DNA of 40,286 nucleotides from Sphaeroforma arctica JP610 (lineage: Eukaryota), in the NCBI RefSeq assembly GCF_001186125.1, contig NW_014040077.1:1-40286 (forward strand), in the 5' to 3' direction. The notes below the pieces were generated by a model. It saw only the letters and a program-made list of their open reading frames with translations, was not told the origin of the DNA and made no database searches. How positions within the stretch are numbered: position 1 is the stretch's first letter; each line of letters opens with the position of its first letter. Positions 3,840 to 39,000 of the stretch are shown here, in pieces. The translations under genes and the position numbers were made by a program.

Positions 3840-4199
3840 ATTGACAGAAATGTTTTTACAATCACTTGAAATATGGATTCTTTTGTCATGATGTTCATCA
3901 TCTTTATATACATCACGCGTGTAGCCGTATACAAAACTGCGAAAGTCGAATGAAGTATTTTACTATTTTACAAAATGAATATCTAAAAAGAGTATACCGA
4001 ATAAAATTTAATCACCACTATTTCGTTATCTGCTATATAACATTCATATTTTGCTTTTTCTATTCATCAAAGAGAGAAAATACTCGGCGATAAAAATTTA
4101 TAGAAAATATCACGTAATGAAGTAAAGTTCAATAGATTAGAAATTTAGAGTTAAGTACACAAAGGACTAAAGTAAAAATTACTGAAATGAGCGAACATT

Positions 4200-12990: not shown

Positions 12991-13408
12991 TAGGGATAAT
13001 ATTATTTATTTCAAAACAAAATTATAAGATATAATGTATGTCTATTATAATGTATGAACATATGGTATGGCTCTCATAGCCGTTGTAGTGGTTCGGGAAA
13101 GATCGATGGGAAGAAGTGGTCTGGAAATTTCCATTTGAAGCTTGGGCCAAGTGAGTTGACGATGGAGGATATGCGCTGAGTCAATTCGGGCCGGTGCTGA
13201 CAAAACACTGATACCATCGAATGTACCATGTATTCGCTTGCTGACCTACTAAGTAGCGTACCCACCTCTGTGGTACGGATGGGGTCTGCGCCGTGTAGTG
13301 CCGTGGAATGGGATAGTGCAGAGTACGAAATACCGAGTAGGACCAGGCTATCCGTCATAATTCGGTCGAGGAGCAAGAATGGAGGTGAGCCAATGCCGCA
13401 CCAGACCA
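12991..13408 (-). mobile_element. Unclassified ~420-bp insertion X, copy 1 (ORF 3' end plus AT-rich 3' UTR)
   Basis: Highly similar to 22765-23165. Encodes ...HRPELTQRISSIVNSLGPSFKWKFPDHFFPSIFPEPLQRL*, followed by an AT-rich tail with AATAAA. Interrupts copia just before the RNase H (D)ADYA-like motif. Confidence 0.65.
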
Positions 13409-14178: not shown

Positions 14179-14948
14179 TGTAAGATTCGGTCTATTGAGA
14201 CGATATTAACGCCTTAGAGTAAATAAATGCGTAGATAAATTCTAAGTATCGTGAAATTATCAAAGCAAATAAACGAAATGAAACTTTTAGTAAAGTTAGG
14301 TATGCCTCGTGAAAACAGCAATACTCTGAGGGATTGTGAGGCTGAGACATTGCCTATATATAATCCTCTCAGTACTGTTTCCGCCGAAGGGATTTTATTT
14401 AGTGTTTCGTTGTCGCTCTAATAGAAACTATGGTATGTTTCATTGGGGCGAATCTGAGAGACTCATAAAATCCTGTCTTTAGAAACAAAAATAGAAAAAA
14501 AAGGAAAAATACACTTGATGTCCTCAGTTATTGTCTTAACCAATAACTTGCCACTTATCAAGAATTACCGACTTAGCCTTCATCAGACTGGCACATCTGG
14601 TTGGCTGATCGGAGGATCAACTAGGTAACGTTAATAGTCCCTAGAAACCTATATTCGGTTGAGCCATCTCGCTACCGAAGTATTCAGATCTAAATAAAGT
14701 TGGAAAGTAGATATAGTTCTATTAATAGAACTAGACCAACTCTTATGTTTGGTATTTTACTAGGGCCTTTTAATGGCCTCGTCCAAATATCTGATATGTA
14801 AAATGGAAAAGGTATTAATTTATAAAACCTTTAAAACCCATTTAGGAAACTTAAGTTCCTCGTACTATTAAGAGTACATTTATAATTTACGTACTGCTTA
14901 AGAGTACGTTTATAACACAGAGTCTAATGTGGAGGCCCGGCTATTACA
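14179..14948 (-). repeat. LTR of family C (770 bp; 5' LTR of truncated element C inserted in the integrase of element A)
   Basis: TGTAA...TTACA termini. Reverse-complement homolog of 33503-34844 and 35353-36084. TATATATA box near 14355-14362. The right flank resumes the element A integrase. Confidence 0.85.
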
Positions 14949-15240
14949 ATGCAACATCAAACACGTGACAGACATATTTATCCTTCGTGTGTTCGGACGT
15001 GGGTAGTTCAACCAAATCAATGATAACCGGCGCCACGACTCGTCTTCTGATACGCTGCGTAGAGGTGCGTATCCGTAGCGCTTGATCCGGTTAACTTCGC
15101 AGTTGCTACATTCGTGATACACCTGAGATATATATTGCTTGAGGTTCGGGTGTACGATTCCGTACCTCTTGCAATCTATATCAGTTCTAACCTTATCCAT
15201 GTGCTTACGAGCATGATTTTGTCTTAACCACTTCAGAATC
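14949..15240 (-). pseudogene. Gypsy A integrase N-terminus (HHCC zinc finger and start of DDE core)
   Basis: ORF 14910-15554 contains ILKWLRQNHARKHMDK..LKQYISQVYHECSNCEVN..APLRSV..WRR. Truncated by LTR C. Confidence 0.85.
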
Positions 15241-15669
15241 GCCTCCTGTGATTTACTTGTTACATCGAAATCAGGAGGTGAGGATTCCACCGCGTCATCA
15301 CCTGGACTCGAAGACTCGTCTTGTCCAATATCGCCTAAAGCTTTTACATCGTGAATCCGACTAATGTTTGATATATCCATTAGTTGGATCACATGATCAT
15401 ATACCTCGGGAAAGTCATTCATCAATTGCTTAAGCAATCGAGTTTCTGCTTGGTATGCAGTTTCCCTGTCAGACCGTATTTGTTGTAGAAGGCTTTCGCT
15501 AGTGATGCGCTCCTCATTGATTCCCTTGAATTTGGCTGTATCTCGGTAACACATACTGCAGGTGCTTGTGTTGTCCCAGTCTCTGATTGAGACTTAGGAT
15601 TCAAGAGTGGAATCTTGGTTTCCTCCATCTTCTGTTTGAAAGTCTCGGATGGTGTCCACTTGGTTGTTC

Positions 15670-16080
15670 CAACTGGACCTATTCGACATATAATAGTATG
15701 TCGCCAAGGCGTCTTATGGAATGCACGGGTACCCTGGTAGAGAAAAGTATCTACCTTTCTATCTACATAGATCGGCTCACATTGTATCATCGAGATCAAC
15801 TGTGGTAGCCATTTATCTGAGTGTCTTAGGGGACAACACAACGTGATGGTACCATCTTGAATATGTACATAATTTAGCAACTGTGGTATTAATAACCATG
15901 GAGGATTTGCCCAGGCATTCTCATTAGACAAGTCAATCTGGAATCCATCTCCTTTCGGATGTTCCAGTGTCCGGTACCTCGGCAGTTGTGCATTATGATG
16001 AGCGGCAAACATATCTATGGTATGTAGTCCATGTATGTTGTCTGCGATCTTAAACCACCTAGGATTGACCATCCAATCCG
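15670..16080 (-). pseudogene. Dam-like N6-adenine DNA methyltransferase domain (DIRS-type) in gypsy A pol
   Basis: DWMVNPRWF (~16078), IDMFAAHHNAQLPRY (16004-16018 for IDMFA), DGF, WANPPW (NPPW 15896-15907), TLCCP..WLPQL. Lies in the same ORF (15422-16498) as RNase H. Confidence 0.88.
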
Positions 16081-16139
16081 TAGCTAGTAACTCCCTAACC
16101 ATCTTATTAAGTCTGGTACGAAGTGAGACAACATGTCGG

Positions 16140-16500
16140 GTAAGTGATTGTGAATACCCGGTATATGTGTCATGCCACCGACTGACTAACTGTGAGTTAG
16201 GTTTCATCTTCTTTAGGTGTTCCAATGACTTCTGATCACATAGCACATCAAAGTGTGTGCCATATAGATAATCTTTAAAATGAGTGAGTGCAGTAACAAT
16301 AGCCAAAAGCTCTTGTTGCACGGTTGGGTAATTGATCTGAGACGAATTCATAGCTCTGCTAAAGAACTGTACATTTCCCGGTTTCCCATCAATCATTTGA
16401 TACAGAACGCCGCCGAGTGTCATGTCGGATGCATCTGTTGCTACCATAAATGGAATACCATCCTTTGGTGGCTGGACTACTGGTGCCTGTTGAACCACTG
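16140..16500 (-). pseudogene. Gypsy A RNase H
   Basis: FMVATDASDMTLGGVLYQ..FFSRAM..NYPTVQQELLAIVTALTHFKDYLYGTHFDVLCDQKSL. Confidence 0.92.
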
Positions 16501-16537
16501 TTTTGAGCTGCTTAAATGCGTCATCACAGTCTTTGGT

Positions 16538-17330
16538 CTACAGCCCGCCTAGTTTGCCTTTATGACATCTCAAATGTCCAAAGGGCTTTAAATATCTTGC
16601 CAGGTGTGGTACTCTGTTAGACAAAAAGTTCCCGAATCCGCACATGCTGTTGACATCCTTACCCGTGGTAGGAGTTCTCCAGTCTAGCAAGTGTCCGACC
16701 ATCCCGGGATCGATCATGATTCCATCCCCGGATACTCGGTAACCCAACAGTTGAATCTCGTTAACACCGAAGTGACATTTCTTACTGTTGATCTTAAAGT
16801 TGTGCTTGTTGAGTCTGTCTAGAACATCTCGCGCAACCTTGTCGTGCTACTCTTTGGTTTTGGTGAATATCACAATGTCATCAATGTATACTTGTACATT
16901 GTCCATGTCCATAGACAAGTCTTGCATAATTTGTTGAAAGAACGCAGGTAACATGTGTAACCCAAAGGGGGCACCTTTGAACGAATACTGCTGACCCTCC
17001 CAGGTAAAGGTGAAATACTTCCGATGTGGTCGGTAGATCTTCATCTGGTGGTAGCCCTGCGTCATGCCGATAGCGGAGAATATCTTAGCTCCCTCCATGC
17101 GCCTGAGTAGTTCGTTTATCCTTGGTAAGTGAAAATTGTGTGTCGGTATCAAAGCGTTAATTGGGCTCATAACCAAACACACTCGAACTTTCGAAGTGTC
17201 CCGTCAGAGTTGAATTGGTCGACGGCTAAAAGCACTAGGTTGACGGGAGTCGGTTCATAGTTGACTGCGATCACTCCGTCATCTAACCATGCTTCAACCT
17301 GTTCCCGTACGACCTGCTCATGATGCCATG
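16538..17330 (-). pseudogene. Gypsy A reverse transcriptase
   Basis: LPRINELL..IFSAI..QGYHQ..FTW..PFGL..PAFFQ..YIDD (16877-16888), then LGYRVSGDGI..GFGNF. Confidence 0.93.
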
Positions 17331-17579
17331 CAACATAAAAACGTGTAGGACACTTTAGCTTCGAGAAATCTACTCTCGTCAGGTCTAGACTAATGTATCC
17401 GTTATTGAATTTGAATTTAGCCCAGTCCATGATCCGAATCTTGTCATTCTCGAAAATCAAGTCCTTGAGTTTCTCTGTAAAGTGAGGGATCATCTCCTTC
17501 ACAGTTTTCGAAGGTTTACATTCTGGTTTCAACAAATTGTCGTCCGACTGATCCTTCTGTGGTTCAATGTTAGTAGGTA

Positions 17580-17890
17580 AGCCTGTAATTGTGATACCTA
17601 ATGACAATAAATCACCCATACCTACTATGAGATCATAGTCGGCTGAAGTGTTACATATGACTGCCTTAGTAACTGTAGTACGTTGGTCTGTCAATGTAAA
17701 CCTAAGATCGATTGCCATTTCTCTGCAAGTGATCTCTCTTTCATCAGCCAGTTTCAACATAGTTGGCTCTGACCTACGAGTAACGTCTGTGATTTTACAG
17801 AATCTAGAGGATATACATGAAATTTGAGAGCCCGGATCTAACAACGCTTTTATTTCATGTCCGTTAACTCGTACGGCAAGGATTACACGC
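17580..17890 (-). pseudogene. Gypsy A aspartic protease
   Basis: VRVNGHEIKALLDPGSQISCIS..LADE..YDLIVGMGDL. Confidence 0.9.
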
Positions 17891-17939
17891 TCGTCTTGAG
17901 GTGCGTCCTTTTGTCTTATTGACAAGACCCGGTATGTTT

Positions 17940-20717
17940 GTCACTTGACTGCAACTTCTGGTTTCACCTTACACGTATGCTTGTGGTAACCTCCAGTCCC
18001 GGTACAGTCGGCACACTTCTCGATAAAGTGCTTACACTTTTCTGCGTGCCTTCCATTCCATCTGCCATTCGGTTTATGTTGGGTCATTCGTCAATTGCAA
18101 TCAATCTCACTACAGTTCTTGACCTCCCTATGCCTGGGCTAAGGGTTGCCTACCGGCGGTCCATTTCTGTTGGTATGGTTACCCTTAGGGACGACATTGA
18201 TCTTGTTGCTGTCAGAACCATTTATATTTTTGTTCTTATTGCCACCCTTGTCAACCCCTTTGTGTACCTTCTGACCTCCATTAGTGAATTGAGAGTCTCG
18301 ACCATGGCAGATCCTCCGGTAAGATTGCCGTTGATCTTCTTCTGAGCATTAGTGACTTTCACCACGGAATTAGGGCGTTTGGTAAACGTCTGATCCGCTC
18401 TCGAGTAAAATTCTGCCTAGGTTAAGTCCGCTAGCTTCATTATACCGTAGGTAGGTCCCTCGATGGAGATCTCTCGTACCTTGTCCGGGTATGATTGATG
18501 CATATCGGCGTACAGAATCTCTTGATCTCTCCTATGTAGGTTTGACCCAAAGATTGTCTGCACCCATAGTACACACATTGATAGCTTATCAGGTGACATC
18601 TCCTGAGTCTGGGCCCGTGACATGTGTGTGTCCAACTCTAATAAGCCGGTGGTATCATGATCGATACAAGCAATTCCGGTCGAGGGTCCGTCGAAAATAA
18701 GAGGACGATCATCTCACTCTGCTCTTTCCACGTTTTCAGCTTAGTGATCGATTGGTTAGCCTTCTCTAACTTGTTGTACTTGGAAGAGGACGGCTTAAAG
18801 CTCTGCTGCGCTGCTTCGAACCATAGGTTCTTTCGTAGATTGGCTGTAAGCAAAATCTGTCCAAACTCTTTCAAAGACCTAGATAACAACGCCAGACTGC
18901 TAGTATCGATTGGATCCTTTCGGTCTTTTCGATCAGATCTATATGTCGTTGGTAGTTTGCCTATGTCCTTTATAAACTTCTTGCCTTCCACAGCCTTCTC
19001 GGTCTGAATCACTCTTTGTTCTGAACCAATCTTAATCTGGATATACGTAGTCATTGTCATATAACGACTAGCGGCATCAATCCTACCTAGATCCATTGCC
19101 TCGAGTGAAGCTGCCTCGGCCTTGTTCATTTGAACAGTGAATTCAGCAATTTTCAGATCCCTACTTGAGTGATCTGATCCCTTCTTTTCTGATTGCATCA
19201 GACCATGCAGTCAGTTATCTGCCTCATCCTTTGATCCATCGATCTGTTCAATATTAATGAACGCTTCGGATGGGACAGCATCTTTTGTCGTCTTTGGGAT
19301 AGCCGCTGGGGGCGAACTGTCTCCCGATGACGACAAGAATTTTCTCGCTTTCACCTGATCAGGTTTCGGCTCTTCCGTCGGTTTGTCCTTCTGAAATATC
19401 TCTGGGGCACTCTGTGGATTTCCTTCCGGAAATGAATTTGGATTAGACTCCTGTTCAGATGCCATTCGCGACATTGCTGTTGCGTCCAATTCAGGAGAGG
19501 GATGAGTTTCGGGTGATGAAGATCTGATTCTGTTTGCCTCTCCATTGTCTGACAACATCTCGAACGCCAATATGACTTTATAGAGTGCCAAATAGTTTGA
19601 TATCAAGTCGGGAAGATCTACCAGAAGATCCCGAATTGCGTACCAAATTAAGTATGCAAAACTTACATCTCCCCTAGTTCCGAATACCTCCGGCAGTATC
19701 TTTTAAAACTGACGGAAATTTTTGCGTACTTGCTTACCGTCGTCAGTTTTCATTTATTTTAGCCGTTTGTAATATTTGTTATCCCTAAACAAATCGTATC
19801 CAAACTTTCTTACCGCTGCATTCATAACATACCTCGGTGAGATAGTACCATCTAGTTTGGTCTTCAATACGTCCAGAAAGAACGTTCCATACGTATTTCG
19901 AAACAACCATGCCCTGTTGGCCCGCTGTCGGATCAACTCTCGTTGACCCTCCTCCTGAAGATCAATCTGTGCCTGGTATGAATTGCCCAGATCAAAGTTC
20001 TGTCGCCAAGCCGATCGGAGTGGTGTTTTGGGTATACGCAGGAATTGTGAGGCAATCCTGCTGCCCGAATCGTCGTCATGACGGTGAAATGTCTGGTCCA
20101 CATCATCCGGACCTATATCCACGAATCGCATTTGTTCTTCCGATACGTTGATTTGGGGTTGATCCAACAGTGCTGTTGGCGCATCCTCCGAGTCATCCTT
20201 CCCTGATTCGTCCTGACTTTGATCCTTCGCTGCGGCTTGCTTTTTCTTCCGCTGCTTAGTAGGTCTCAAATCATGTACCATTGGTAGGTAGTTCTTCAGG
20301 AAGGCTCTCCTATCTCTTGCTATCATGTGATAAGTAGGATCTCGCCTACGTGCTTTGCGCGTATCCACTGATGGAGATGGTACATCTGATTCCAGTGCAT
20401 GTCGGACTTCCTCTGAAGTTGAGTTGCCCGAGGAATGCGTTTTCTCGACCTTTCCCTTTCGAGATCTCGCCTTCTTCGCTGGTGGCTTCTGTGGCTCCGT
20501 AGTCACATTACCTCCGGATGCACCTATACCTGAGTCAGCCAACTACTTACGTTTTTGTTTAGTCGGAGTTGGTACTGGCGGTCTCGGCGTGATCTCAGAT
20601 ACGTCAGAGTCCACTGATGATGCCGGGGGTGTTTTTTTGCTTTCCATCGCCTCCAGTAAACCAATTTACTTTTGCAGCCTTAGCTACATTCGCTGCCTTC
20701 TTGTTACTTTTCGTCAT
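17940..20717 (-). pseudogene. Long gag/ORF1 region of gypsy A (fragmented)
   Basis: Consecutive minus-strand ORFs 20604-20717, 19754-20542, 19211-19606, 18638-19198, 18417-18635. The last two are conserved with element B (KDIGKLPTTYR..DPIDTS). Cys/His cluster at ~17965-18110. Confidence 0.7.
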
Positions 20718-20748: not shown

Positions 20749-21649
20749 TGTAAAAGTCGGTCTCCTCTAGGCTGACTATACGATATCAATACGTTTACGT
20801 TAATAAGACAATACGATAAACGTTAAAATGCAAAATGTTAAAAATAAGTTTAGCTTCAGCCCTTGGTAGTGAGCAAAAGATTAGGGGATTATAGACTGAG
20901 ACTATTGTCTATATGCTCTGCTCTAATCACTCACTACTTCGGCCTAGATTTATTTATGTTTTAGTTACTAAGATTAGATATCATTTCATTGGACGCATAT
21001 TTACATTTCACGCCTCGAAACAATTATCTACTCAAAATAACCAATAAAATAATCCCTAAGTCCAACTTAAGAAAAGAAAAAAGGAAATCAAAACACCAAG
21101 CTGGTGCAGTATATATCTGCAGCTAAACCCCATCACTTGGTACCTAGCTCCCCATCCCATATAAGGCATAGACGGGCACATCTAGTTGGCTGGCTAGGAG
21201 GAATCAAAACCAGGTTGTCCTAAATTCTAACAACTCTGATCATGTCCTTTTCTCAGTGGATTATCTTGCTCTGAGATTATTATCGATTATACCATAGGTT
21301 TGTACCAACAACCATTTCATGCCTGAGACCCTCTCTCATGGTACTCCCGTTAATTAGAGATTCTCAAGGTGTCACTTTCAGGTGTCAGATTTGTATCATT
21401 CCTATATTCTGTACAAATCTAATTTCAGTGGAAAAAAACCAATCTATATTTGGAAAACCACCTAATTGTCCACAGTAAAGTCCCATACTCTACTGAGTAC
21501 TATCACATATTCAGAATCTTAATATCTCAATTATTGTTCATGTCCAATACATTAAACGTATTCCAGTATTATAAGTATAAACGATAATACGTCAATACGT
21601 TTATAATATACGTTAACTGTGCAACTACTATTAGGAACCCGCTGATGCA
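20749..21649 (-). repeat. 5' LTR of gypsy A (~901 bp)
   Basis: Begins TGTAAAAGTCGGTCT on +, like LTR C TGTAAGATTCGGTCT. Shares blocks GGGATT..CTGAGAC..CTATA and GGCACATCT(A/G)GTTGGCTG with LTR C. Ends ..GATGCA at 21649, where copia sequence resumes. Confidence 0.75.
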
Positions 21650-21769
21650 GGTAAAGTGGCTGGTGGTGAACTTGTGGCTATCCGGGCAGACAGGGCAGAG
21701 ACAGCCGTCGGTGCGGTAGTCGAGCATTAGTGATGGCATCAGCGACTAGAGGGTTATTTTGAAAACGGT

Positions 21770-22690
21770 ATGTCAAGCCAAGATGAGGAGTCTATTTAAG
21801 ATACTGGAGTACGCGAAGGCCAGCTTGCCAATGTTGCTATAACGGGTTGTGCATGTAGCGTGCAGCAATGCGTGTCAACACCGAGGATATTGTTATGTAT
21901 CAATGAGTTCTCGGTATGCACATTTAAATGCAGAACCGGTGCTTTGAGAAACTGGGTCCAATGTGGCGAATGTAGGAGCGGGATGGCAGTTTGTCATGTC
22001 GAATCTCGAGGGCTTTCTTGATCTTATTATCTTGTCTGAGACTGATAGTGTCGTGAGTTGTGAGGACACGAACACTTATTTGCCTTTGCAGGTCGCCGAG
22101 ATCCTTACAACTAAATTCATGTTAGAGAAGAGACTAAACGCCGAGATAAAATTGATGGTGTTACCACAGAAGAATGTTTCCGGGTTTGCCATAAATAGGC
22201 AAAGGTCTGAAGCAGCTTGAACAAACCCCATGGCAAGAAGTTTAGATCGGATGAGTTCGTGCCATAATCGGCTCAGCAGTTTCAGGCCGTATAAACTTTT
22301 CTTCAGTTTCATAATTTGATCATCGGGGAGGCCGGTGGTGAACGAGCCAGAGGGGGTTTTATGTAGATTGACTGGTCGATATTAGCATAGAGATGAGCGT
22401 TGTCGACGTCGAGTTGTTCGGCATGTCATCCGGCAGAGACGGCAATGGCAGGTAGATGCATATGTCTCGTTGTAGTTAGGCAGAATTCGTGTTTTCGACT
22501 AAACCATCGACCATTTTTATCCTACATATCCATTTCCTAGTGACAGTGAAAGCGTCGTCGTGAATGTCATCAGGATGAATGAGTTCACAGTACATGCCGG
22601 CCCTACGAAGACTATCGAGTTCACGTTTGAATGATTCGCGCCAAAGATCAGCATCTTCCCCCTTTATGGCGGCACGGAGGGTAGTTGGGG
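21770..22690 (-). pseudogene. Copia reverse transcriptase (decayed, internally deleted)
   Basis: Manual translation: PTTLRAAIKGEDADLWRESFKRELDSL, QLDVDNA, MKLKKSLYGLK..W..L..MGFVQAASDLCLF, YRELI, HWQAGLRVLQYLK*TPHLGLTY. Confidence 0.9.
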
Positions 22691-22765
22691 TAAGTGGATT
22701 GGAATGTGCGGCATTACCGCCAGTGTAGAGTTTGTGAACCGTTCCATCGTAGAGCGCCTGTTGAT

Positions 22766-23200
22766 AGGAATAAAATTATTTATTTCTAAAAAGATAAGAT
22801 ACAATGTATGTATGTTACAATATATGGCTCTCATAGCCGTTGTAGTGGTTCGGGAAAGATCGATGGGAAGAAGTGGTCAGTAAATTCCCGTTTGAAGCTT
22901 GGGCCAATTGAGTCGACGATGGTGGATATGCGCTGAGTCAATTCGGGCCGGTGCTGACAAAACACTGATACCATCGAATGTACCATGTATTCGCTTGCTG
23001 ACCTACTAAGTAGCGTACCCACCTCTGTGGTACGGATCGGGTCTGCGCCGTGTAGTGCCGTGGAATGTGTTAGTGCAGAGTGCGAAATACCGAGTAGGAC
23101 CATGTTATCCGTCATAATTCGGTCAAGGAGCGAGGATGGGGATGAGCCAATGCCGTACCAGACCACAACGTTTGGGCACTAGAGGGTAAAGAAATGTGAG
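22766..23200 (-). mobile_element. Unclassified insertion X, copy 2
   Basis: Near-identical ORF 22831-23166 to that at 13074-13408. Candidate 7-bp TSD TGTTGAT at 22759-22765 and 23201-23207. Confidence 0.6.
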
Positions 23201-24399
23201 TGTTGATTGGAGTGGCGAGATCGTGTATGTGGTCGTCTTAATCAAGGATGTTCGAGGCTGTGGAGAGCGGCACTGGTGGTGGTACGAGCATGTTGAAGAA
23301 CATCTCGTCTGTACTGTTTGTCGGCTTTGTATTGTTTATGAGCATGTTTAACATGAGCTAATACTCGCTGATATTTATCGCGCAGGGTGAGTTCCTTGGA
23401 CGTGGTGTCCATGGAAGCGTCGGAGAGTGAGGAAGAATGAAGATAGTGAACGTGACGATAAATGTTCTAGAGATCTGTAGCCCAAGTGACGTTTGGAGAG
23501 CGTGTGGGGGGAATGTTGAAAGGCGAGATATCACTGGATTAAGGGAACGGAGGGCTCCCCTGGCTGCTGAGGGGTGGGAAGTGTGGAAGTAGGCTTCCCT
23601 GATTGCTGCGTAGCGGGTGTCATAGAAGGTACCCTGGGTGACTGTGTGGTGAGTAGGGGACCGTCCCCTGGTTTCGTGACATCTGTGGGGGTCAATAGCT
23701 TCCCTGGTTGCATGACACCGGTGGGTGTGGAGGGAATGTGTTGTGCCACTGGTTGGTGAAGGACGGGGAGTGTGAAATTAGGCTCCCCGGGTTGCTGCGT
23801 AGCAGGTGTCATAGGAGACACCCTGGGTGGCTGTGTGGTGGGGTTAGGGGACAATTTCCTGGTTGCGTGACATGCGTGTATCTAACGAGCGCGTTGACGA
23901 GTGATGCGCACGTTGCCCGGTTTGAAGAAGGCCCTTTAAGGTACGGGATGTCCGGTGTTTAGCAAGGTGGCTGGCAAGCAGGTTGTTGATGATATTTTCT
24001 AAAGAAGGGACAGAGGTAGTGATCGAGAAGGAAGGTGTGGGGAGAAGTGGGGTGAGCGATGGTGTGGGAACTGGCGTGTGTGTAGGAAGGGCATAGTCGG
24101 GATGTAGAGGAGATATTGGCGGAGAAGTGATGGGAGCAGGGTGAACGGTGGTGGCCTGGAGTGACGGGTGTTGGAAGTAACGGTGCAGTGCTGTTGGAAG
24201 AGGATGGTGTAGATATGGTATTAGGGTTGAGTTGGAGCGAAAGTGTAAGTTTGCGTATGGTGGGGACATGGCGGACGGGGTATGGAAAAAGGGACTGGCG
24301 TCGTCCCAGCCATGGTCCACGTCGGGAAGAGTTCTTAACATCGCGGGAACGGCATTTTTTCTTCTTCCATACTTTAGACTGAGAATGAGGAAATCGTCA

Positions 24400-25611
24400 T
24401 TGTACCTGGATGAGCGATCGTGACCGAGGTATACGCCGAGTATTGTGGGGTCATCGAGTTTGCCCTGTTGGTCCTGATTCACGAATGCGACTTGACAACC
24501 ATATACATGTATGTTCTTAAGGCGAACGGTGGGGAATTCGCCGTAAAATATTTCCCGGGATGGTTATTGGTCAGAGTTGTGCTTGATAAGTTGGTCAGTC
24601 TTAGTTATAGTCTCGAGTAGAATAGCTTCAGCCCACATACATTCGTGTCGTTGAGCATTTTTGAGCATGTAGTTCATGATGTTCTTGATACTGCCGTTGG
24701 TGCGCTCTATCAAGCCGTGAAGGACAGGGGAGTTAGTGGGGATAAACGTGACCTTAATGTGAGACAGGGTATTGATACGTTGGGAATTCTTGAGAGATAA
24801 AATCGCCGCCCTGGTCGCACTTAATTTCGGTGAATTTACTGAGATATGTTTTCCCGATATCGGTATAAAACTGGGCCAATGTGTGGTACGCATCATTCTT
24901 GATCCTGAGTGGGTAGACGAACCACGTACTTGATGTTAGATGTGTACCCATTGAGAGAGGAGGAGAGGCCAGTTCTAAATCTACGTGAAAGACAGTACCG
25001 AGAGGTGGAAGATAAGTGTGGTCTTTGTGGGTGTGCGAGATAGGCTCGCTGACGCATTTTGCCTGTACCACAGGGTGTGCAGAAACTCAGCGGACGAGGG
25101 TGAGCGAGAACATCGGCTTCGGCGGACAGTAGCTTGGTAATGGGCGGGACAGCAGATGTAGTGTTGCCAACACGTGCGATGTTCAACATGTGAATTGAAT
25201 TGGAAGAGAGTTTGTATATAGTTGCGTGTGTTTGGTGTGAGAGGAAACACCATGGTGATGAGGACGTTTTCTCGTTCGAATTTGAGAAGTGTCTTTCGCC
25301 ATGTTGGCTTGCGAAAAGGAATGTTACCATACAAGTGTTTGTTGTGTTGACGCCATGATTGCGTGAATATATCGTGTAAGGGTGTGCCAGGGTCGAGACT
25401 GCAGTATCTGGGAACCTGAGCGTTGTGAGCCGTAGCGAAAAGGTCGATATCAAGCGGTCCAAAGACATCAACTACATATGTTTGGAAAAGGTCAGAGTGG
25501 AGTTTCTAGTCGTCATATGAAGGTGAAGGTATCGGAGATGGTGTGATATTGCTGTTGTGTAGGATGCCGCATTTTGACATCCGGATGTGCGTGACCAAGC
25601 ATTGTATGCCA
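24400..25611 (-). pseudogene. Copia integrase (GAG-pre-integrase zinc finger, DDE core, SH3-like), interrupted by an MTase domain
   Basis: WHTMLGH 25591-25611, CTPCGTGK 25058-25081, VFHVDL, EIKCDQGGDF, GLIERTNGSI..WAEAI, GKLDD..GVYLGHD. Frameshifted. Confidence 0.88.
25200..25514 (-). pseudogene. Dam-like N6-adenine DNA methyltransferase domain (DIRS-type) within copia pol
   Basis: Manual translation in the frame of ORF 24981-25334, extended upstream: DD*KLHSDLFQTYVVDVFGPLDIDLFATAHNAQVPRYCSLDPGTPLHDIFTQSWRQHNKHLYGNIPFRKPTWRKTLLKFERENVLITMVFPLTP. IDLFA at 25434-25448, NIPF at 25314-25325. Confidence 0.85.
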
Positions 25612-25759
25612 GTTGGCGAGTGTGTGTGTACTAAGTGGGGCTAGTGCGTGTTGGCCGGCAGTGTTTTGGACGCGATTGATAGTATGACCGGCTTGTTGGA
25701 TATGGCATTCGGTAGGTTATGATTCGTCGACCGCAGGTGGAAAGTAAATAATGTAGCGT

Positions 25760-25980
25760 GACGTTGAAGGAGTTGAACGGAGAGTATACTTTGGGTGTCT
25801 GTGGGCATGATGAGGACGCGGCCAAGACCTGGAAGAAGGCCGTGTTGGAGTAGAGTAATTTGCCTTTTGTCAGGGAACTCGACGATAAAATTGCCGTGTT
25901 CGAAACTACTAACGCCGAATGTGGTAGCGCGGATATGTACCATGGCCCCAGAGTCGATGAGGGATGCCCAGAGATGATCA
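25760..25980 (-). pseudogene. Copia aspartic protease
   Basis: WASLIDSGAMVHI..G..L..VLIMP..SILSV in ORF 25641-26096. Confidence 0.8.
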
Positions 25981-26056
25981 GCGGTTGAGGGTCCAGTTGT
26001 AGCTGTCTGTAGAGTATGAAGACGATAGCGTCTAACAGGCGGAGGTATAAAAGACT

Positions 26057-26327
26057 TGGTACAGTGGGAGTGTCGAGTAGATGGTATGTGAACCACCGGT
26101 TACAGGGGCGCCGTAATAACACTGCATGCATGCAGTATCGTTAGGACCAACACGGGTACATTTGCTATATTTGAGGTAAGAGCGGTCGACACCTGGTACA
26201 GTGGGAGTGTCGAGTAGATAGTATGTGAACCACCGGTTACAGGGGCGCCGTAATATCACTGCATGCATGCAGTATCGTTAGGACCAACACGGGTACATTT
26301 GCTATATTTGAGGTAAGAGCGGTCGAC
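26057..26327. repeat. 137-bp tandem duplication in the copia gag zinc-knuckle region
   Basis: TGGTACAGTGGGAGTG...GCGGTCGAC occurs at 26057 and 26194 with only a few mismatches. Confidence 0.92.
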
Positions 26328-27000
26328 GGGACAGGTGCGACCGATGTAGTCGTGTGATGGCCAAGGGTCAAACATAGGGAATATTTGCGTTCATGGTGTG
26401 TGCTGTGGGGAATCTTGGTGTGAAGGATGTTGAGGCTGGAAGGAATGGGCTGGGCGATAAGATGATGGTCGCCTTCAAATTTCAAGGTGAGGTGATAGAC
26501 TTCCTCCAGACTGATTGTATCCGTGCCCTTGGCAAATACTGTAGAACGTAGTAGGTTATAGTTATCGCTACGACTGTATAATAAAGCACAGATAAAATAC
26601 TTATCTGGTATTACTTCACCCACGTCGAGTAACTCTTGGCGTATTTCCTCGAGTGTTTGCATGCTTGTTTCAGTAGAGCCCGTAGCAGTGAAGTATGTTA
26701 AGCGTTTTATACCATCTCAGAAGCGACCATGGCTGCCAGTGTTATTAGTGATGCAGATGTAATTGAAGAACTCAGAGAGGGATTTAGAAATGTGACCCTT
26801 GTAGACGGCGTTGATTAATTTATCACTAATAGAGATATTGAGTATGCGACGGTTTTTGGCATCGGCGAGCATGTCTGCGCCTTCACCGATGGACGTCATG
26901 ACATCGAGAATATAGACTATGCAGTGTACCAAAATGTTCATGTTCCATTTTGAGACCAGTGTACCAGATGCCAAAATCGGCGTACCCTTTTGTAGTTCGT
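26237..27000 (-). pseudogene. Copia gag
   Basis: LEEIRQELLDVGEVIPDKYFICALLYSRSDNYNLLRSTV (copia gag-type L..G..I.D.....LL.SL...Y pattern). N-terminal PIL..W..I motif and degenerate CCHC knuckles (YSLCLTLGHH, SKCTRVGPNDTAC). Confidence 0.8.
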
Positions 27001-27689
27001 TGTCTTTATATTTTGGACATTCGGAGGTGGGGAGGTCACGTTGATCAGGCTGGACATCGTACAAGGACCGTGGTTCATGAGGCATACTTTTACTTTGCTT
27101 CTCGTTAGTTTCGAGGTATTCGACATCAGCTCGTTCCTTCACGTCTCCAACATTCTCAGATCCATTCACGAAAAATAGTGAAATAGGTTAAATCGATGAA
27201 TACAGACAGTGCATGTATGTTTAAAATCAACCTCAAGTTATGCGTTTGTGGCTAGCTCAGAGCTGATCATACCTCCAATTCGTGGAGCCTTTTCGATCAT
27301 TGTATCCTTCTTCTGGGCAACAGATTTTGCTTTCTCGTGATCATAATCTAGACAGTGCGTGTGCGAAGCTCTAAGGATATCTGGCTTAGACTGGATCGAT
27401 GTGTAAGCGCAAGGCAGCACCGTTTATATGAGTGATACAGACATTTTTATTATTATAGCGATTATCATCTTGCATGTGTTTGTGTTTCTGCACTTTAGAC
27501 AAATTACACTCTCCATGGGTCCCAGTGCATGTGTGTAAAATTTCAACGGATGAATTTTTTTTAGGGTGGGTGATCAAAAACCCAAACCCTGCCACCCCCA
27601 AGTTAGGGTAATTAGAAAACGATTAAACGTATGCTACTATTAACTACCCCGCAAGGGTAGTGGAAAGTGGGGTATCTCAAATATAATTA

Positions 27690-28158
27690 CTTTTTACAAT
27701 TTAACATGTTTTTTTAACTCAACGTTTAGTACGATATAGTCGGTTTGGATAAATAAACATTCTAAGTTTGATTCCTGTTTAAACTATGACGAATGCAAAG
27801 GGATCGGCTAAGGCTTCGAATTTCTCGTCATGGAGGACTAAGGTGCTGAGGTCGCCAGTATTTAATTTCTTTTCACAGTTCAATATAAATATTTTAACTC
27901 AAATATTCAGTACGATATAGTCAGTTTGGTTAAGTAAACATTCTAGGTTTAATCCCTATTTAAACTATTGCCAAGGTCGCCAGTATTTAATTTCTTTTCA
28001 CAGTTTAATATAAATGTTTTAACTCAACGTTCAGTATGATAAAGTCAGTTTGGTTAAGTAAACATTCTAAGTTTAATCCCTATTTAAACTATGACGAATG
28101 CAAAGAAACCGACTAAGGCTTCGAATTCCTCGTCATAGAGGACAAAGGTGCCGAGGTC
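27690..28158. repeat. Tandem array of three ~180-bp units (middle one internally deleted)
   Basis: TTTTAACTCAA..GTACGATATAGTC..AAACATTCTA..TTTAAACTAT recurs at ~27712, ~27892 and ~28017. ATGACGAATGCAAAG..CTCGTCAT..GAGGTC is present in units 1 and 3 only. Confidence 0.88.
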
Positions 28159-31564: not shown

Positions 31565-31759
31565 CAATGGCCTCTGTGCAATGCTTGTATTATATTTTCT
31601 TAGACAAAGTATACTTAGACTTTATAAGTTACTCGGTTACTCTATTACGTTTCGGTTTAGGTCCTTGAGGTCCCTGATAGTGGATGGGACATTTCTTAGT
31701 GCCTTTAGGAGGCACATACATTCCATGATCTTTTAAACTTGTGATCCGATATTAAGAGC

Positions 31760-32740
31760 ACTTGAACCATCACCAAAGTTAACTTCGTAAGTTCCGCTCT
31801 TCTTATTGGCCACTGAAATCTTGAATGGTCTAATGTATTCAGCTGTATGCACAGTTGTATCGGAGTTGCGAGCCATGATGATGACTATATCGCCCACCTC
31901 AAACTCGACTATCTTCTTCGAATCATTTCATCGCTTGTATCTTTTCTTGAGTGCGATATCCTTCATCTCTCTCAAGCTAGGAAAGACAAAATCTCTGGTA
32001 CGACGTATCTTCTCTAACCATGGTAGCACATGATCTTCCTGAGAATTCTTGTTGAAAAGTACTAGTAGTTCACTATAACGGCCTCTGAAATAGTGAGCGG
32101 GTGTTCTATCAGTGACTGTATCCGGTGTCTCGTTCATTTGTGTTTGTACCCAGTTAATTGAGTACATGTCACAATCGTCTAGTAACGCTCCACACATGAA
32201 CTTCTTCATCTTTCTGTGCGTACCTCGATTGCACCTTGTGTCTGATGCTTATATAGTACACCCATCTTTTGGCATGATCCCGCAACAAGTAATAGTGTTG
32301 TCATGACGTCTCCTGTAACTCACTACCGTTGTCGGGTCGATACATACAGTAGCTGGCCAGTCGAAATCTGCGAAACATTTATATATGCACTCAGCCGCAG
32401 TTTGTATTGATTTGTCTTTCAGATATAATAGTACATTCTATTTTGAAGCAACATCAAACACTGACAGACATACTTATCTTTCATGTGTTCGGACGTGGAT
32501 AGCTCAACCAAATCAATGACAACCCTGCGCCATTGCTCCTCTTCTGATACGCTTTGCAATTGTGCCTACCCGTAGCGCTTGATTCGATTAACTTTGCAGT
32601 CGTTGCATTCGTGATACACCTGAGATATATATTGCTTAAGCTTTGCCGTACCTTTTACAATCTTTCTCAGTCCTAACCTTATCCATGTGTTTAAGCGCAT
32701 GAATCTGCCTTAGCCACTTCAGAATATCTTCTTCCGGTGA
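31760..32740 (-). pseudogene. Gypsy B DDE integrase with HHCC finger and GPY/F-like module
   Basis: IHALKHMD..YHECNDC, VIDLVEL..FDVASK, MNETPDTVTDRTPAHYFRGR, FEVGDIV..YIRPFKI..GTYEV. Confidence 0.85.
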
Positions 32741-33169
32741 ACTTGCTATATCAAAGTCTGGAGGTGATGATTCCACTACTACATCACTTGGACTTGAAGA
32801 CTCGTCTGGTCCAATTTCGCCTGAAAGATCGGCCGTGTGAATTCTACCAATGTTCGCCCTGTCCATTAGTTGAGTTACATGATCGTATACATCTGGAAAA
32901 TCGTTCATCAACTGCTGAAGTAATTTTGTCTCGGCTTCGTATGCAGTTGCTCTGTCAGAACATATCTTCTTGTAGGATACTTTTGCTAGTGTTGAGTTCC
33001 TCTTTGATTCTGTAGGATCAGATTGTACCTCAGTGACGCATACTGCAGGTGCGTGTGTTGTCGCAGCCTCTCATCGAGACTTAGGTATCAAGAGTGGAAT
33101 CCTGCATTCTTCAACCTAACGTTTGAAGGTCTCCAATTGTGTCCATTTGGATGTTCCAACTAGTCCTAT

Positions 33170-34915
33170 TCGACATATAATTGTATGTCGCCAAGGCGAA
33201 TTTTGGACTGCACGGGTACCCTGGTAGAGGACAGTATCTATCTCTCTATCCACATATATAGGCTCACATTGTAACATCTATGTCAACTGTGGGCGCCATT
33301 TATCTGAATGTCTTAGGGAACAACACAGCGTGCTGGTAGCATCTTATATAGTACATAATTTAGCAACTGTAGTATCAACAACCACTGTGAATTCGCCCAT
33401 GTGTTCTCGTCTGTTAAGTTGATTTGAAACGCATGCCATCTGGATGTTCCAGAGTCCGGTATCGTGGCAGTTGCGCATTATGATGAGCAGCAAACATATC
33501 AATGTAATAAGCCGAGCCTCCACATTAGACTCTTATGTATAAACGTACTCTTAAGCAGTACGCAAATTATAAACGTACTCTTAATAGTACGAGGAACTTA
33601 AGTCTCCTAAATGTACTCTTAATAGTACGAGGAACTTAAGTCTCCTAAATGTACTCTTAATAGTACNNNNNNNNNNNNNNNNNNNNNNNNNNNNNNNNNN
33701 NNNNNNNNNNNNNNNNNNNNNNNNNNNNNNNNNNNNNNNNNNNNNNNNNNNNNNNNNNNNNNNNNNNNNNNNNNNNNNNNNNNNNNNNNNNNNNNNNNNN
33801 NNNNNNNNNNNNNNNNNNNNNNNNNNNNNNNNNNNNNNNNNNNNNNNNNNNNNNNNNNNNNNNNNNNNNNNNNNNNNNNNNNNNNNNNNNNNNNNNNNNN
33901 NNNNNNNNNNNNNNNNNNNNNNNNNNNNNNNNNNNNNNNNNNNNNNNNNNNNNNNNNNNNNNNNNNNNNNNNNNNNNNNNNNNNNNNNNNNNNNNNNNNN
34001 NNNNNNNNNNNNNNNNNNNNNNNNNNNNNNNNNNNNNNNNNNNNNNNNNNNNNNNNNNNNNNNNNNNNNNNNNNNNNNNNNNNNNNNNNNNNNNNNNNNN
34101 NNNNNNNNNNNNNNNNNNNNNNNNNNNNNNNNNNNNNNNNNNNNNNNNNNNNNNNNNNNNNNNNNNNNNNNNNNNNNNNNNNNNNNNNNNNNNNNNNNNN
34201 NNNNNNNNNNNNNNNNNNNNNNNNNNNNNNNNNNNNNNNNNNNNNNNNNNNNNNNNNNNNNNNNNNNNNNNNNNNNNNNNNNNNNNNNNNNNNNNAAAAG
34301 AGCTTGTATTAAATTATTTAAAATACAAATAAAAACCAATGTATTATCTCAATTGATCTTGATATTTTAGACTGACCGGAGGCCGTATTTCTACAAATAT
34401 AGGTTTCTAGGGACTATTAACGTTACTTAGTTGATCCTTCGATAAGCCAACCAGATGTGCCAGTCTGATGAAGGCTAAGTCGGTAATTCTTGAGAGTGGC
34501 AAGTTATTGGTTAAGACAATAACTAAAGACATCAAGAGTATTTTTTTTAAATTTCTTTTTTCTAAAGATAGGATTTTATGAGTCTCTCGGATTCGCCCCA
34601 GAATAGAGCGACAACGAAACACTAAATAAAATCCCTTCGGCGGAAAAAGTACTGAGAGGATTATATATAGGCAATGTCTCAGCCTCACAATCCCTCAGAG
34701 TATTGCTGTTTTCACGAGGCAAACCTAACTTTATTAAACGTCTCATTTCGTTTATTTATATCGATATTTACACGATATAGAATTTACCTACGCGTTTATT
34801 TATTCTAAGGCATTAGTATCGCCTTTATTAGACCGAATCTTACATCAATGGTATGTGGACACACATATGTTGTCTGCAATCTTGAACCACCTAGGATTGG
34901 CCATCCAATCGTAGA
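33170..34915 (-). pseudogene. Gypsy B adenine MTase domain, split by a solo LTR within the IDMFA motif
   Basis: HHNAQLPRYRTLEHP and WANSQW (decayed NPPW) at 33380-33485. The N-terminal part (DW..NPRWF) lies at 34845-34915. Confidence 0.82.
33503..34844 (+). mobile_element. Family C LTR insertion (solo LTR with internal gap), 4-bp TSD TCAA
   Basis: TCAA-TGTAATAAGCCGAGCCTCC...GACCGAATCTTACA-TCAA. Removing it restores colinearity with A. A 38-bp tandem repeat precedes the N-gap. Confidence 0.88.
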
Positions 34916-35352
34916 TAGTGACTCCCGGACCATCTTATTGAAGTCTGGTACGCAGCGTGAAAGCATATCCGGCAAGTGATTATGTACCCCCGGTATATGT
35001 GTAAATCCAAATGGAAATTTCGCGATCGTATCGTGCCATCGACTGACCAATGTCAATTGGGTTTCATGTTCTTTAAATGTTGCAACGATTTCTGATCGCA
35101 CATTACATTGATATATGTACCGTATAGGTAATCCTAAAAATGAGCGAGTGCAGTCACAATAGCCAATAGCTCTTGTTGCACCGTCGGGTAGTTGATTTGT
35201 GACGAACCCATAGCCCTACTAAAGAATTGCACGTATCTCGGTTTCCCATCTATCATTTGATACAGCACGCATCCTATCGCCATGTCGGATACATCTGTAG
35301 CCACCATGAACGGAACTCCATCCTTTGGTGGCTGCACTACGGGAGCTTGCTG

Positions 35353-36084
35353 TGTAAAAGCCGGGCCTCCACATTATAATCCTGTATTATAAACGTACTC
35401 TTAAAAGTACGTAAACTCAGTTTTCCTTAAATGGTTTTCAACGGTTTTATTAATTAAATACCTTCTCCATTTTACATATCAGATATTTGGACAAGGCCAT
35501 TAAATGGCCTCAGTAAAATATCAACTTTATGATTTGGACTAGTTCTATTAATAAAACTATATTTACTTTCCAAATCTATTTCTATCTGAATACTTCGGTA
35601 GCGAGATGGCTCAACCAAACATAGGTTTCTTAGGACAATTAGCGTTGCTTAGTTTATCCTCCGTTCAGCCAACCAGATGTGCCAGTCTGATGAATACTAG
35701 TCGGTATTCCTGGATAAGTGGCAAGTTATTGGTTAAATAATACAATAATTATGGACATCAAGAGTATTTTTTATTTTTATTTTTATTTTTTCTATTTATT
35801 TTTCTAAAGATAGGATTTCATGAGTCTCTCGGATTCGCCCTAACGAAACATAGTCATAGTTTCTAGTAGAGTCCCTTCGGCGGAAACAGTACTGAGAGGA
35901 TTACATATAGGCAATGTCTTAGCCTCACAATCCCTCAGAGTATTGCTGTTTTCACGAGGCATACCTAACTTTACTAAAAGACTCATTTCGGTTATTTACT
36001 CTTTGATTTTACTACACTTAGACTTGACCTAAGCGTTTAATTACTCTAAGGCGTTAGTACCGCCTTGATAGACCGAAACTTACA
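35353..36084 (+). mobile_element. Family C solo LTR (732 bp), 4-bp TSD GCTG
   Basis: GCTG-TGTAAAAGCCGGGCCTCC...GACCGAAACTTACA-GCTG. Interrupts B between RT and RH. Confidence 0.92.
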
Positions 36085-39000
36085 GCTGGACCATTGTTAT
36101 GAGCTGCTTAAGGCATCATCACGTTCGTTAGTCCATAACGCCCCCAATTTACCCTCATGGCATCGTAAATGTCCAAAAGGTTTAAAATAGGTTGCCAAGT
36201 GAGGTACTCCATCTGACAGAAAGTTGACGAAACCGCTTATACTGTTCACATCCTTCCCTATAGTGGGTGTTCTCCAATCTAGCAAGTGTTCGACCTTTCC
36301 GGGTTCAATCGTGATGCCGTCCCCGGATACACGGTACCCCAACAGCTGAATCTCGTTTACGCCAAACTGACATTTTTTTGCTGTTTATTTTAAACTTGTG
36401 CTTATTTAGCCTAGCTCAAACTTCTCGCACAACTCTACCATGCTCCTCCTTGGTCTTTGTAAATTACACAATATCGTCGATGTATGCCTATACGTTATCC
36501 ATGTCTCTAAACAGATCTTGCACGATTTGTTGAAAGAAGGCTGGTAACATATGAAGACCAAATGGTGCTCCCTTGAAGGAATACTGCTGTCCATCCCAAG
36601 TGAAGGTAGAATACTTACGATGTGGTTTGCGTATCTTCATTTGGTGGTAACCCTGCTTCAAATCGATGGTCGAAAACATTTTCGCACCTTCCATTCTTCT
36701 CGTGAAAGTTGTGTGTAGGTATAAAGGTATAGGAGCGTTTAAAGGGCTCATACTTAAGTAAGCATACGCGAACCTTTTTCAACGTACCATCTGAGTTGAA
36801 CTGGTCTACTGCCAAGAGTGGTAGATTGACTGGAGTTGGTTTGTAATTCGCAGCAATCACTCCAGCTTCTAACCAAGCCTTAACCTGTTCTCTGACTACC
36901 TGTTCATGACGCTATGCTACGTAGTTGCGCGTCGGACATTTCAACTTCGAAAAGTCTGCTTTTGTCCAGTCTAAGCTCACATATCCGTTGTTGAATTTGA
37001 ACTGAGCCCAGTCAGTAATCTTGATCTTGTTATTCTTGAAGATAAGATCCTTTAGCTTCTATGTGAATTGAGGTATCATTTTTCCTACAGTCTTAGAAGA
37101 AGGCTTATATACAGGCTTCAGCAGATTGTCATCTGACCGATCCTTCTGTGGGTTAATATTTGTCGGTAGGCCGATGACTGTTATACCTAAAGACAAAAGA
37201 TATATCCCCACTATCAAACCATAGTCTGGCGATGTGTTACAGACAACTGCCTTTGTGACCATTGTCCGTTGATCAGTGAGGGTAAACCTCAAATCTACGG
37301 CCATGTCACGACACGTAATCTGCCTTTTGTCAGCTAGTTTTAACATAGTAGGCTCTGATTTACGAGTTACATCAGTTATCTTACATAATCTCGATGATAT
37401 ACACGAACTTTACGAGCCTGGATCTAACAACGCTTTTATTTCATGCCCGTTAACCCGTATATCGAGAACGACACGCTCATCTTGCGATGCATACTTTTGT
37501 TTCAGTGCCAAGATCCGGTAAGATTGTCACTTAACTTCACATTCGGTTGCACCTTACACATGTGTTTGTGGTAACCTTCAGTCTTTGCGCAAGTCTGCAC
37601 ACTTCGCAATAAAATGTTTACATTTCTATGCGTGCCTGCCATCCCAGCGACCGTTCGGCTCATGTTGGGTCATGTGCCAGCTGCAATCCGTTTCAGCACG
37701 GTCCTTGATCTCTTTATACTTTGGCTTAAGAGGCTCAGCTGCCTGAGCGGATTTGTTGCCCAAGGTCCCGCAAGTGTTGACATTGCTCTTGTGACCATCA
37801 GTACCTTGCACATGCTTGTTCTTCTGGCCACCTTTATCTCCACCTTTGTTCCCTTTATTGTTTTCCGTTTCCGTATGAGAGTCTCGACCAGTACCTGGTT
37901 CTTCATTCGTGTTGGGTACAACCTTCTTACTTGGCTGAACGAATTTCACCACAGAACTCGGGCGTTTGGAAAACGTCTGGTCTACTCTCGAATAAAATTC
38001 AGTCCATGTCCGGTCGGCGAGTTTCATAATACCGTAGGTTGGTCCTTCAATTGAAATCTAACGTACCTTGTCTGGATAAGATTGATGCATGTCTGCGTAC
38101 AATATCTCTGTCTTTTTGGTGATGAGCTGACCAAAAGATTGTTTGTACCCACAACACACACATACTCAGCTTGTCGGATGACATCTCCAGTGTCTGAGCA
38201 CGTGATATATGTATGTCCAGTTCCAAGAGATAATGTGACACTAATGTCCCTTCATCCGGTGGTACCATGATGGATACCAGCAATTCCGGTCTGGGGACTG
38301 TTGAGAACAGATGGACTATCATCTCGCTCTGATCCTTCCACGTCTTCAGCTTTGTTACAGTGGTCTTTGCCTTCTCCAACTTATTATACTTCTAAGATGA
38401 TGGCTTGAAACTCTGTTGCGCTTAAATTTTCAGTAAGCATGATTTGACCAAATTCCTTCAAATGTCTTGATAATAACGCTAAGGTACTCGTATCGATGGG
38501 GTCCTTGCGGTCTTTTCGATTTGGACGATACGTAGTGGGTAGTTTACCTATATCCTTGACAAACTTCATACTGTCCACTGTCTTCTCAGCGTGTATGATG
38601 CGTAGCTCCGTATCGATTTTGGATTGAAAGTGCTTCGCCATAGTCATTCATTCTCAAGCTGGCTTGCTCGATCGTCCCTTGATTCATTGCTAGCGTTGCC
38701 TCCTCTTCCGCATTAAGCATCCCAGCTGTGAAATCAGTAATCTTCTTGTCACTCTTCGAAGTCTCGTCGATTCGTGCGTGCGTCCCCTTCATGCAATGTA
38801 GTCGCTGATCATCATTGTCATCATCGTCCTCCGGGTCCTCACTTTGCGTTGCCGTCGCCCTCGTAGTCTTGGACGTTTTCAACGCTTGACAGACGGCGGC
38901 TGGTAATCGGGTCCTGAAGAGTCTGGTTCCTCAAACTCTGGTGATGATTGACTCCCATCCCCGCTCGAGCTTTTCGACTTCTCTTCCACCTTAAAATTCC

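Follow-up and report, generated by a model that had tools for sequence, protein, structure and literature searches.

Retrotransposons named DAM-LTRs were described by Fernandez-Moreno et al. (bioRxiv 10.64898/2026.05.21.726589, May 2026), including a chromodomain-less ichthyosporean lineage with plain Ty3/Gypsy organisation in Pirum, Abeoforma and Sphaeroforma arctica. DAM-LTR copies were found to be more methylated (6mA) and more expressed in two ichthyosporeans, both as correlations, and DAM domains expressed in dam- E. coli yielded no 6mA. The domains were reported in DIRS and Ty3/Gypsy-like elements only, with a tree built on RVT_1 and 46% of the domains left as 'orphan'. The words 'copia' and 'Ty1' do not occur in the main text of the preprint, whose figures and supplements could include such an element, and the main text makes no mention of PCIF1. 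The methyltransferases (MTases) of DIRS elements belong to the PCIF1 clade and are thought likely inactive according to the accessible part of Iyer et al. 2016, in which 'copia' is likewise absent. A parallel is found in the retrotransposon cytosine DNMTs, where elements of the LINE, DIRS and gypsy types captured a methyltransferase into pol; Symbiodinium copia elements are reported to be without a DNMT (de Mendoza et al. 2018, PMC5890265). The cytosine DNMTs are C5 enzymes of an unrelated fold class. No publication on a copia element with an adenine MTase was found in a literature search that reached few subscription papers or Repbase reports.

The window analysed here is a stretch of 40,286 nucleotides of S. 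arctica JP610 (NW_014040077.1). It carries two copies, A and B, of a Ty3/gypsy LTR retrotransposon with a domain of predicted N6-adenine MTase fold between RNase H and integrase. Both copies are broken. Copy A lies on the minus strand in the order protease, RT, RNase H, MTase (IDMFA..NPPW), zinc finger and integrase. Its 5' LTR (20749..21643) has the inner ...TTACA end, a motif common to the C-family LTRs of the window, whereas its outermost ~9 bp, TG end included, are missing; other contigs continue beyond 21643. The adjoining region of several broken ORFs (17941..20700) is collinear with copy B and has no informative Pfam match, and its putative gag role is assigned by position. The aspartic protease and the start of the RT occupy 17170..17940 (Asp_protease_2 E 3.5e-6; LLDPGS at 17844-17827), in agreement with the original prediction, which was made from the sequence letters. 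The RT (16538..17203) matches RVT_1, has Ty3 RT as its closest solved structure (E 6e-30, the next at E 5e-18) and contains in-frame stops at 16849 and 16540. ORF 15422-16537(-) extends over 371 aa from stop to stop and encodes a gypsy-type RNase H (16163..16537), recognized by Pfam (RT_RNaseH_2 E 5e-28, RT_RNaseH E 2e-26) and by a purpose-built HMM. The same ORF encodes the N6-adenine MTase domain (15680..16081), with motif I IDMFAA at 16018-16001 and motif IV NPPW at 15907-15896 (ANPPW at 15910-15896). The original prediction had the MTase followed by an HHCC finger. RNase H and MTase do share the ORF and all motifs are present, and a frameshift near 15500 puts the finger (HARKH 15215-15201, CSNC 15110-15099) in a frame other than that of the MTase. 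The integrase (14949..15230, located by motifs and by tblastn with the intact relatives P0001 and P0002) consists of this finger and ends at 14949, just past the first catalytic Asp, where it is cut by a C-family LTR.

Copy B (31739..38600, minus strand) is decayed, 72-80% identical to copy A, and has the remainder of the integrase. The DDE core and GPY/F-like stretch anticipated for this copy are present at 32530-31740, scattered over several frames. The LTR truncating copy A (14179..14948, minus strand) has TG..CA ends, no TSD and, next to it, a gag-like ORF (14060-13476) downstream. Two solo C-family LTRs on the plus strand interrupt copy B, one in the MTase (33503..34844, spanning an N gap; TSD TCAA) and one in the RNase H (35353..36084; TSD GCTG), both with TG..CA ends. 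The expected 4-bp TSDs of the C family are thus seen for two of three LTRs. A TG..CA LTR had also been claimed for the MTase-bearing element itself, but copy A keeps the CA end only. Copy A has a single, clipped LTR, with neither a 3' LTR nor a TSD of its own within the window, and because the outer ~9 bp are missing, LTR ends and TSDs are demonstrated for the C family and not for copy A. All three C-family LTRs of the window sit in pol genes of the A/B family (integrase, MTase and RNase H), which may reflect a nesting preference or chance within a TE cluster. A TGG-type primer-binding site is absent 3' of both LTRs (20748-20720 and 14178-14150) and no tRNA-type primer site is apparent there; self-priming complementarity reaches at best 9 nt in C, with none in copy A. 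ApT enrichment is not evident within the elements (o/e 0.93-1.08). The density of GATC, rounded down and given here without statistics, is ~8/kb in copy A (14950-20700), ~3 in copy B, ~2 in the copia element described below and ~1 in 2000-10700.

Intact relatives clarify the architecture that the broken copies no longer encode in one piece. A phmmer search with the MTase against 1.84 billion representatives returned 984 proteins at E<=0.001, the best 150 of which were used. P0001 and P0002, which are 68% and 65% identical to copy A across the MTase domain, encode RT, RNase H, MTase (Dam), H2C2 and rve in one ORF each, with a protease match also in P0002. Their integrase is complete, with an HHCC finger, a D-35-E triad (its spacing established by manual count in P0002) and an rve match at E 6e-9, and neither has a Chromo match in Pfam at E<=0.5. 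The order PR-RT-RH-Dam-H2C2-rve in single ORFs bears out the proposed LTR/DDE lineage with an MTase. The RT tree comprises 62 rows (copy A plus 61 relatives that each align over 120 residues or more, all MTase-bearing); its bootstrap is unsettled, it is built without Repbase reference elements, and its DIRS-like rows are labelled by architecture, a rule that mislabels the short Abeoforma row P0003. Copy A groups with P0001 and P0002 at 100/99, and in a 12-row set with P0003 and P0006 of Abeoforma whisleri at 96/96. MTase trees were built for 84 and 44 rows, the remaining listed matches being left out. They place copy A with Abeoforma elements in an 18-row set that also includes environmental rows (97/87), and under a mixture model this grouping stands at 93/93 and 92/81. 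Among the matches listed, the closest named relatives of the copy A MTase are P0003, P0005 and P0006 of A. whisleri.

The comparison with the ichthyosporean DAM-LTRs reveals no difference in kind. Copies A and B match that lineage in every feature tested and represent a known class rather than a new one: the Ty3/gypsy organisation and the Dam-like domain in pol are the same, the NPP triplet is kept in copy A, and no chromodomain is seen in the intact relatives P0001 and P0002. The gypsy element is almost certainly a DAM-LTR as defined by Fernandez-Moreno et al., and the novelty that the original prediction implied for this design is superseded by the preprint (bioRxiv 10.64898/2026.05.21.726589). 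Alternative placements of the same MTase are seen in P0020, P0063 and P0039: in P0020 the domain precedes an aspartic-protease-like DSAA motif, while P0039 has it between an endonuclease/exonuclease/phosphatase domain and the RT.

The gypsy MTase domain is modelled as a Rossmann amino-MTase fold. The structure model of the copy A domain (156 aa) has a mean pLDDT of 91, which together with the 984 relatives at E<=0.001 argues that the MTase match is not due to chance. Foldseek ranks PCIF1/CAPAM first (E 8e-5, TMq 0.60), then KsgA and RlmJ, and VIA-align gives PCIF1 at Z 10.7 (rmsd 3.3, 148 aligned), DIMT1 at 9.4 and KsgA/ErmE at 8.8, making RNA-acting enzymes the nearest solved folds. The Dam enzymes of E. 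coli (Z 8.2, 112 aligned) and T4 (8.1, 106 aligned) follow, and the amino-MTase fold proposed for the domain is therefore upheld. By sequence, the family is nearer to phage Dam PF05869 than to the Pfam PCIF1 model: of 60 members, 55 match the former, at E 9e-17 in the best case, and 13 the latter, at E 1e-3 in the best case. In the window, the Pfam Dam scores are 19.9-22.2 bits for the gypsy domains and 20.6 bits for the copia domain, below the cut-off of 28.1 that several relatives exceed; a profile search of the region thus recovers Dam in the copy A ORF at E 6e-4, yet at a subthreshold 19.9 bits. Searches of solved structures with the sequence and the family profile gave chance matches only. 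A tblastn search of phages produced seven weak matches (E 0.4-1), every one an annotated methyltransferase, and the phage family PHROG 111 was matched at E 2e-3 and 5e-4.

Signs of selection on the domain come from comparisons among copies. P0001 and P0002 are identical at 103/148 positions of the MTase (70%), 75/101 of the RNase H (74%), 92/151 of the RT (61%) and 32/117 of the linker (27%). Conservation of the MTase at the level of RT and RNase H, against 27% in the linker, shows past selection on the domain. Differences between copies A and B in the 3' part of the MTase show a third-position excess (17/118, 10/117 and 33/117 by codon position), which is stronger in the RT (23, 21 and 103 of 209) and lacking in the short 5' part of the MTase (3/32, 4/32 and 4/31). 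The motif IV of N6-MTases, (D/N/S/H)PP(Y/F/W), is retained in copy A (NPPW) and lost in copy B (NSQW), so the claim of an intact NPPW stands for copy A but not for copy B. NPPW or NPPF is found in 69 of 84 aligned domains, with DxFA predominant at motif I, and NPP[WF] in 17 of 20 LTR-type rows. The other three of the 20 depart from it, and variants occur in intact elements as CPPW in P0002, NIPF in P0015 and HPPW in P0045. The intact NPPW of copy A is by itself no demonstration of activity.

A second element of the window differs from the DAM-LTRs of the preprint in having RVT_2 and an MTase domain inside the integrase finger. This copia-type element (27187-21727, minus strand) has gag, protease, integrase, an RVT_2-type RT and the start of RNase H in copia order, with Pfam matches to Retrotran_gag_2, SH3_retrovirus and RVT_2 that all fall below cut-off. 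Gag covers 26240..27187 (Retrotran_gag_2 E 5e-4 on 26240-26716), and the protease (25644..26099) has no Pfam match and is assigned by motif only, LIDSGA at 25961-25944, which we take to be the copia protease motif. WHTMLGH (25591..25611, no match to Pfam gag_pre-integrs) and CTPCGTGK (25058..25081) presumably represent the copia patterns WHxRLGH and CxxCxxGK, which would make them the two halves, HH and CC, of the zinc finger of the integrase. The two halves (25611-25591 and 25081-25058) are 509 nt apart, and the MTase domain lies between them (25170..25514; IDLFA 25448-25434, NIPF 25325-25314; Pfam Dam E 4e-4; model pLDDT 80). The integrase core with its SH3-like part (24400..24990) contains FHVDL, CDQGGDF and HGLIER; its look-alikes in the Atlas are rve clusters (0.91-0.93), with SH3_retrovirus at E 1e-3 and rve_3 at E 0.14, and a sequence search of the integrase pieces against solved structures found no match. 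The frameshifted and truncated RT with the RNase H start (21727..22800) is recognized by RVT_2 (E 2.5e-5 and 1.3e-4) and motifs. The 3' end of the element has been replaced by other insertions. Very high-copy repeat pieces without notable Pfam match (12991-13408, 22765-23165 and 21644-21726; summed contig depth ~1000-fold above single-copy parts) truncate or interrupt C and copia elements. A 137-bp tandem duplication (26054-26327) lies at the copia gag/protease junction and a cluster of 120-180-bp repeats (27681-28158) upstream of gag. Elsewhere, the window has a tandem array with a 27-bp unit (30541-30675) and an ORF without Pfam match (29545-29994, minus strand) containing VVGDGNCL, which in our view resembles the OTU cysteine-protease motif.

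The copia domain itself is a member of the MTase family, scoring 64.6 bits on an HMM from which it was left out, where shuffles reach at most 8.2 (446 reported of 500), and with 137 blastp matches among 151 relatives. It is no assembly chimera, as a 3004-bp contig present in three runs from three studies, one of them possibly the source of this DNA, spans 23110-26113 with zero differences. Two further contigs of the same organism with ~80% likeness join copia parts in each of the three runs. One links integrase (24463-24521 and 24614-24656) with MTase motif I (25422-25453) through a 32-letter side, and the other links MTase (25212-25292) with the CC region (25051-25123). Among the few contig differences in a filtered list, 8 of 9 are at third positions and 7 of 9 are synonymous, the three within the MTase among them. 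The NIPF variant is shared with one other of the 84 rows, and the loose end of the second linking contig, read by hand, has I-P at motif IV too, so that NIP looks like a family trait rather than decay.

The fusion of the MTase to the copia element is probably real, judging from these sequence comparisons. Intact copia-MTase proteins were absent among 175 long-homologue candidates, and a census by alignment found none in 3846 candidates, though it also missed the positive control P0001 and so carries no weight. Relatives of the copia MTase were found in none of nine stretches of viral contigs and relatives of the copia RT in none of ten; eight metagenome loci that share a related RNase H carry no MTase. 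With frameshifted pieces and no intact copia copy recovered, the fusion is likely rather than demonstrated. Regarding its donor, the copia MTase falls on the LTR side of the MTase trees (98/84; 95/96) and is sister at 100/86 to P0015, an intact chromodomain-bearing gypsy pol of a chromovirus sharing the NIPF variant; this sisterhood is lost once the motif columns are dropped. A position on the DIRS side (p 0.24) and an origin in the gypsy family of the window (p 0.32) both survive AU tests. We favor with moderate confidence that a Ty1/copia lineage built an adenine MTase of the DIRS/DAM-LTR type with a NIP motif into the spacer of its integrase finger (HH-MTase-CC), and that this is a real and undescribed arrangement, which would make it the first Dam-bearing copia. 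The capture was likely separate from that of the gypsy element, with a domain from one and the same family added at the N-terminus of the copia integrase, where the enzyme would be placed on the cDNA before integration.

Other origins of these domains have to be weighed for both elements. The RT-RH-MT order of the gypsy element is that of DIRS1-type elements, which have the same MTase family at the end of pol, and the MTase is directly terminal in most of its relatives. Copies A and B might then be a DIRS retrotransposon, or a gypsy copy with a nested DIRS piece. We consider this hardly credible given that the RT tree splits 16 LTR-side rows, including copy A, from 46 DIRS-like rows at 100/100, as the proposed Ty3/gypsy identity entails, and that protease, gypsy RNase H and D-35-E integrase share one ORF in P0001 and P0002. 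The gypsy RT and probable direct TG..CA LTRs further separate the element from the DIRS1 type, and the tyrosine recombinase that DIRS elements, which have no protease, use in place of a DDE integrase was not detected in the 27 of the window's 125 ORFs scanned with Pfam. Nesting is a weightier concern for the copia element, whose MTase could be a passive gypsy/DIRS fragment in a dead copy that was never part of a polyprotein. Insertions are nested within one another in the window, and HH, MTase, CC and core occupy different frames; the missing intact protein and the absence of RVT_2 from the 40 MTase relatives scanned by Pfam, a set drawn from the matches listed, would also follow. All four parts nevertheless lie on the same strand, and the domain is flanked by neither RNase H nor any other donor sequence, with 120 HSPs confined to 25125-25517 and zero shared 6-mers on either side. 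The coding strand of the domain has the base composition of the copia protease and integrase (C 0.30/G 0.15), unlike the gypsy MTase (0.21/0.21), and both the linking contigs and the synonymous third-position differences speak against a passive fragment. We thus regard a passive fragment as the less probable origin, deserving some weight, and retain the captured domain as the preferred reading.

What the gypsy MTase acts on is a separate matter. On balance we lean slightly toward the view that intact relatives of the decayed copies A and B methylate adenines of their own reverse-transcription products in the virus-like particle. As a working mechanism, methylation of the own cDNA stands evenly poised in our judgement. 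The MTase would be made within Pol and thereby carried into the particle; the travel of Pol into the particle is standard Ty3 biology. There it would methylate adenines on single-stranded, hybrid or newly made DNA of the element, so that a new insertion might arrive pre-marked with 6mA. In the model of the preprint, whose 6mA and expression data are correlations, the mark would afterwards be upheld by host AMT1, which would keep the copy transcribed. With no separate target-recognition domain in the 156-aa model, ssDNA or an RNA:DNA hybrid would be a likelier substrate than naked dsDNA, and the negative result on dsDNA would fit such a non-duplex substrate as well. The position of the MTase beside or inside the integrase in both superfamilies would likewise fit action on cDNA. 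Against such methylation stand the negative E. coli result, the inactivity suspected for DIRS MTases, and the departures from NPP[WF] in three of 20 LTR-type rows, with CPPW in P0002, a close and otherwise intact relative. The weaker third-position excess of the MTase compared with the RT, the RNA-acting nearest solved folds, the subthreshold Dam scores, the broken state of copies A and B, and the lack of evident ApT enrichment count against it too. An RNA methyltransferase like PCIF1/CAPAM might instead methylate cap-adjacent or internal adenines of the genomic RNA for stability, translation or packaging, leaving 6mA on DAM-LTR DNA secondary to transcription. Such a role would explain why two methods put PCIF1 on top of the solved folds, followed by rRNA m6A enzymes, and is consistent with the PCIF1 matches among relatives and the clade assignment of DIRS MTases noted above; the preprint, silent on PCIF1 in its main text, assayed E. 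coli DNA only. We nonetheless think it unlikely, as sequence similarity lies with phage Dam, and PCIF1 may rank first only for want of a closer solved structure, the family profile matching none. The gypsy domain resembles PCIF1/CAPAM in its NPPF-type motif (PMC8287941) but shares 11-15% identity with it, is embedded in a retroelement polyprotein, and has neither a WW domain nor the helical domain that serves cap recognition in PCIF1. The variant motifs of intact elements, the failure of the E. coli assay to show 6mA and the inactivity suspected for DIRS MTases could alternatively indicate a domain without catalysis that binds nucleic acid, SAM or some host protein and is retained for example for steering integration or recruiting AMT1. 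This too seems improbable, because the prevalence of NPPW or NPPF and of DxFA at motif I would be needless for a pure binder.

The gypsy element alone adds a further member to a class described in 2026. The copia fusion, if true, would show adenine MTase capture reaching the second LTR superfamily within a single genome, and both LTR superfamilies of one host would have converged on delivering an N6-methyltransferase together with the integrase. Such a co-occurrence would point to an advantage arising from the 6mA system of the host and not from gypsy biology. A Dam-bearing copia would have been missed by screens based on RVT_1 and might be hidden among the 46% 'orphan' domains. The PCIF1-like fold points to RNA or single strands as a second candidate substrate class for all such domains. 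An MTase located inside the copia integrase would make cDNA in the pre-integration complex a candidate substrate, and so bear on the substrate question that the negative result in E. coli raises.
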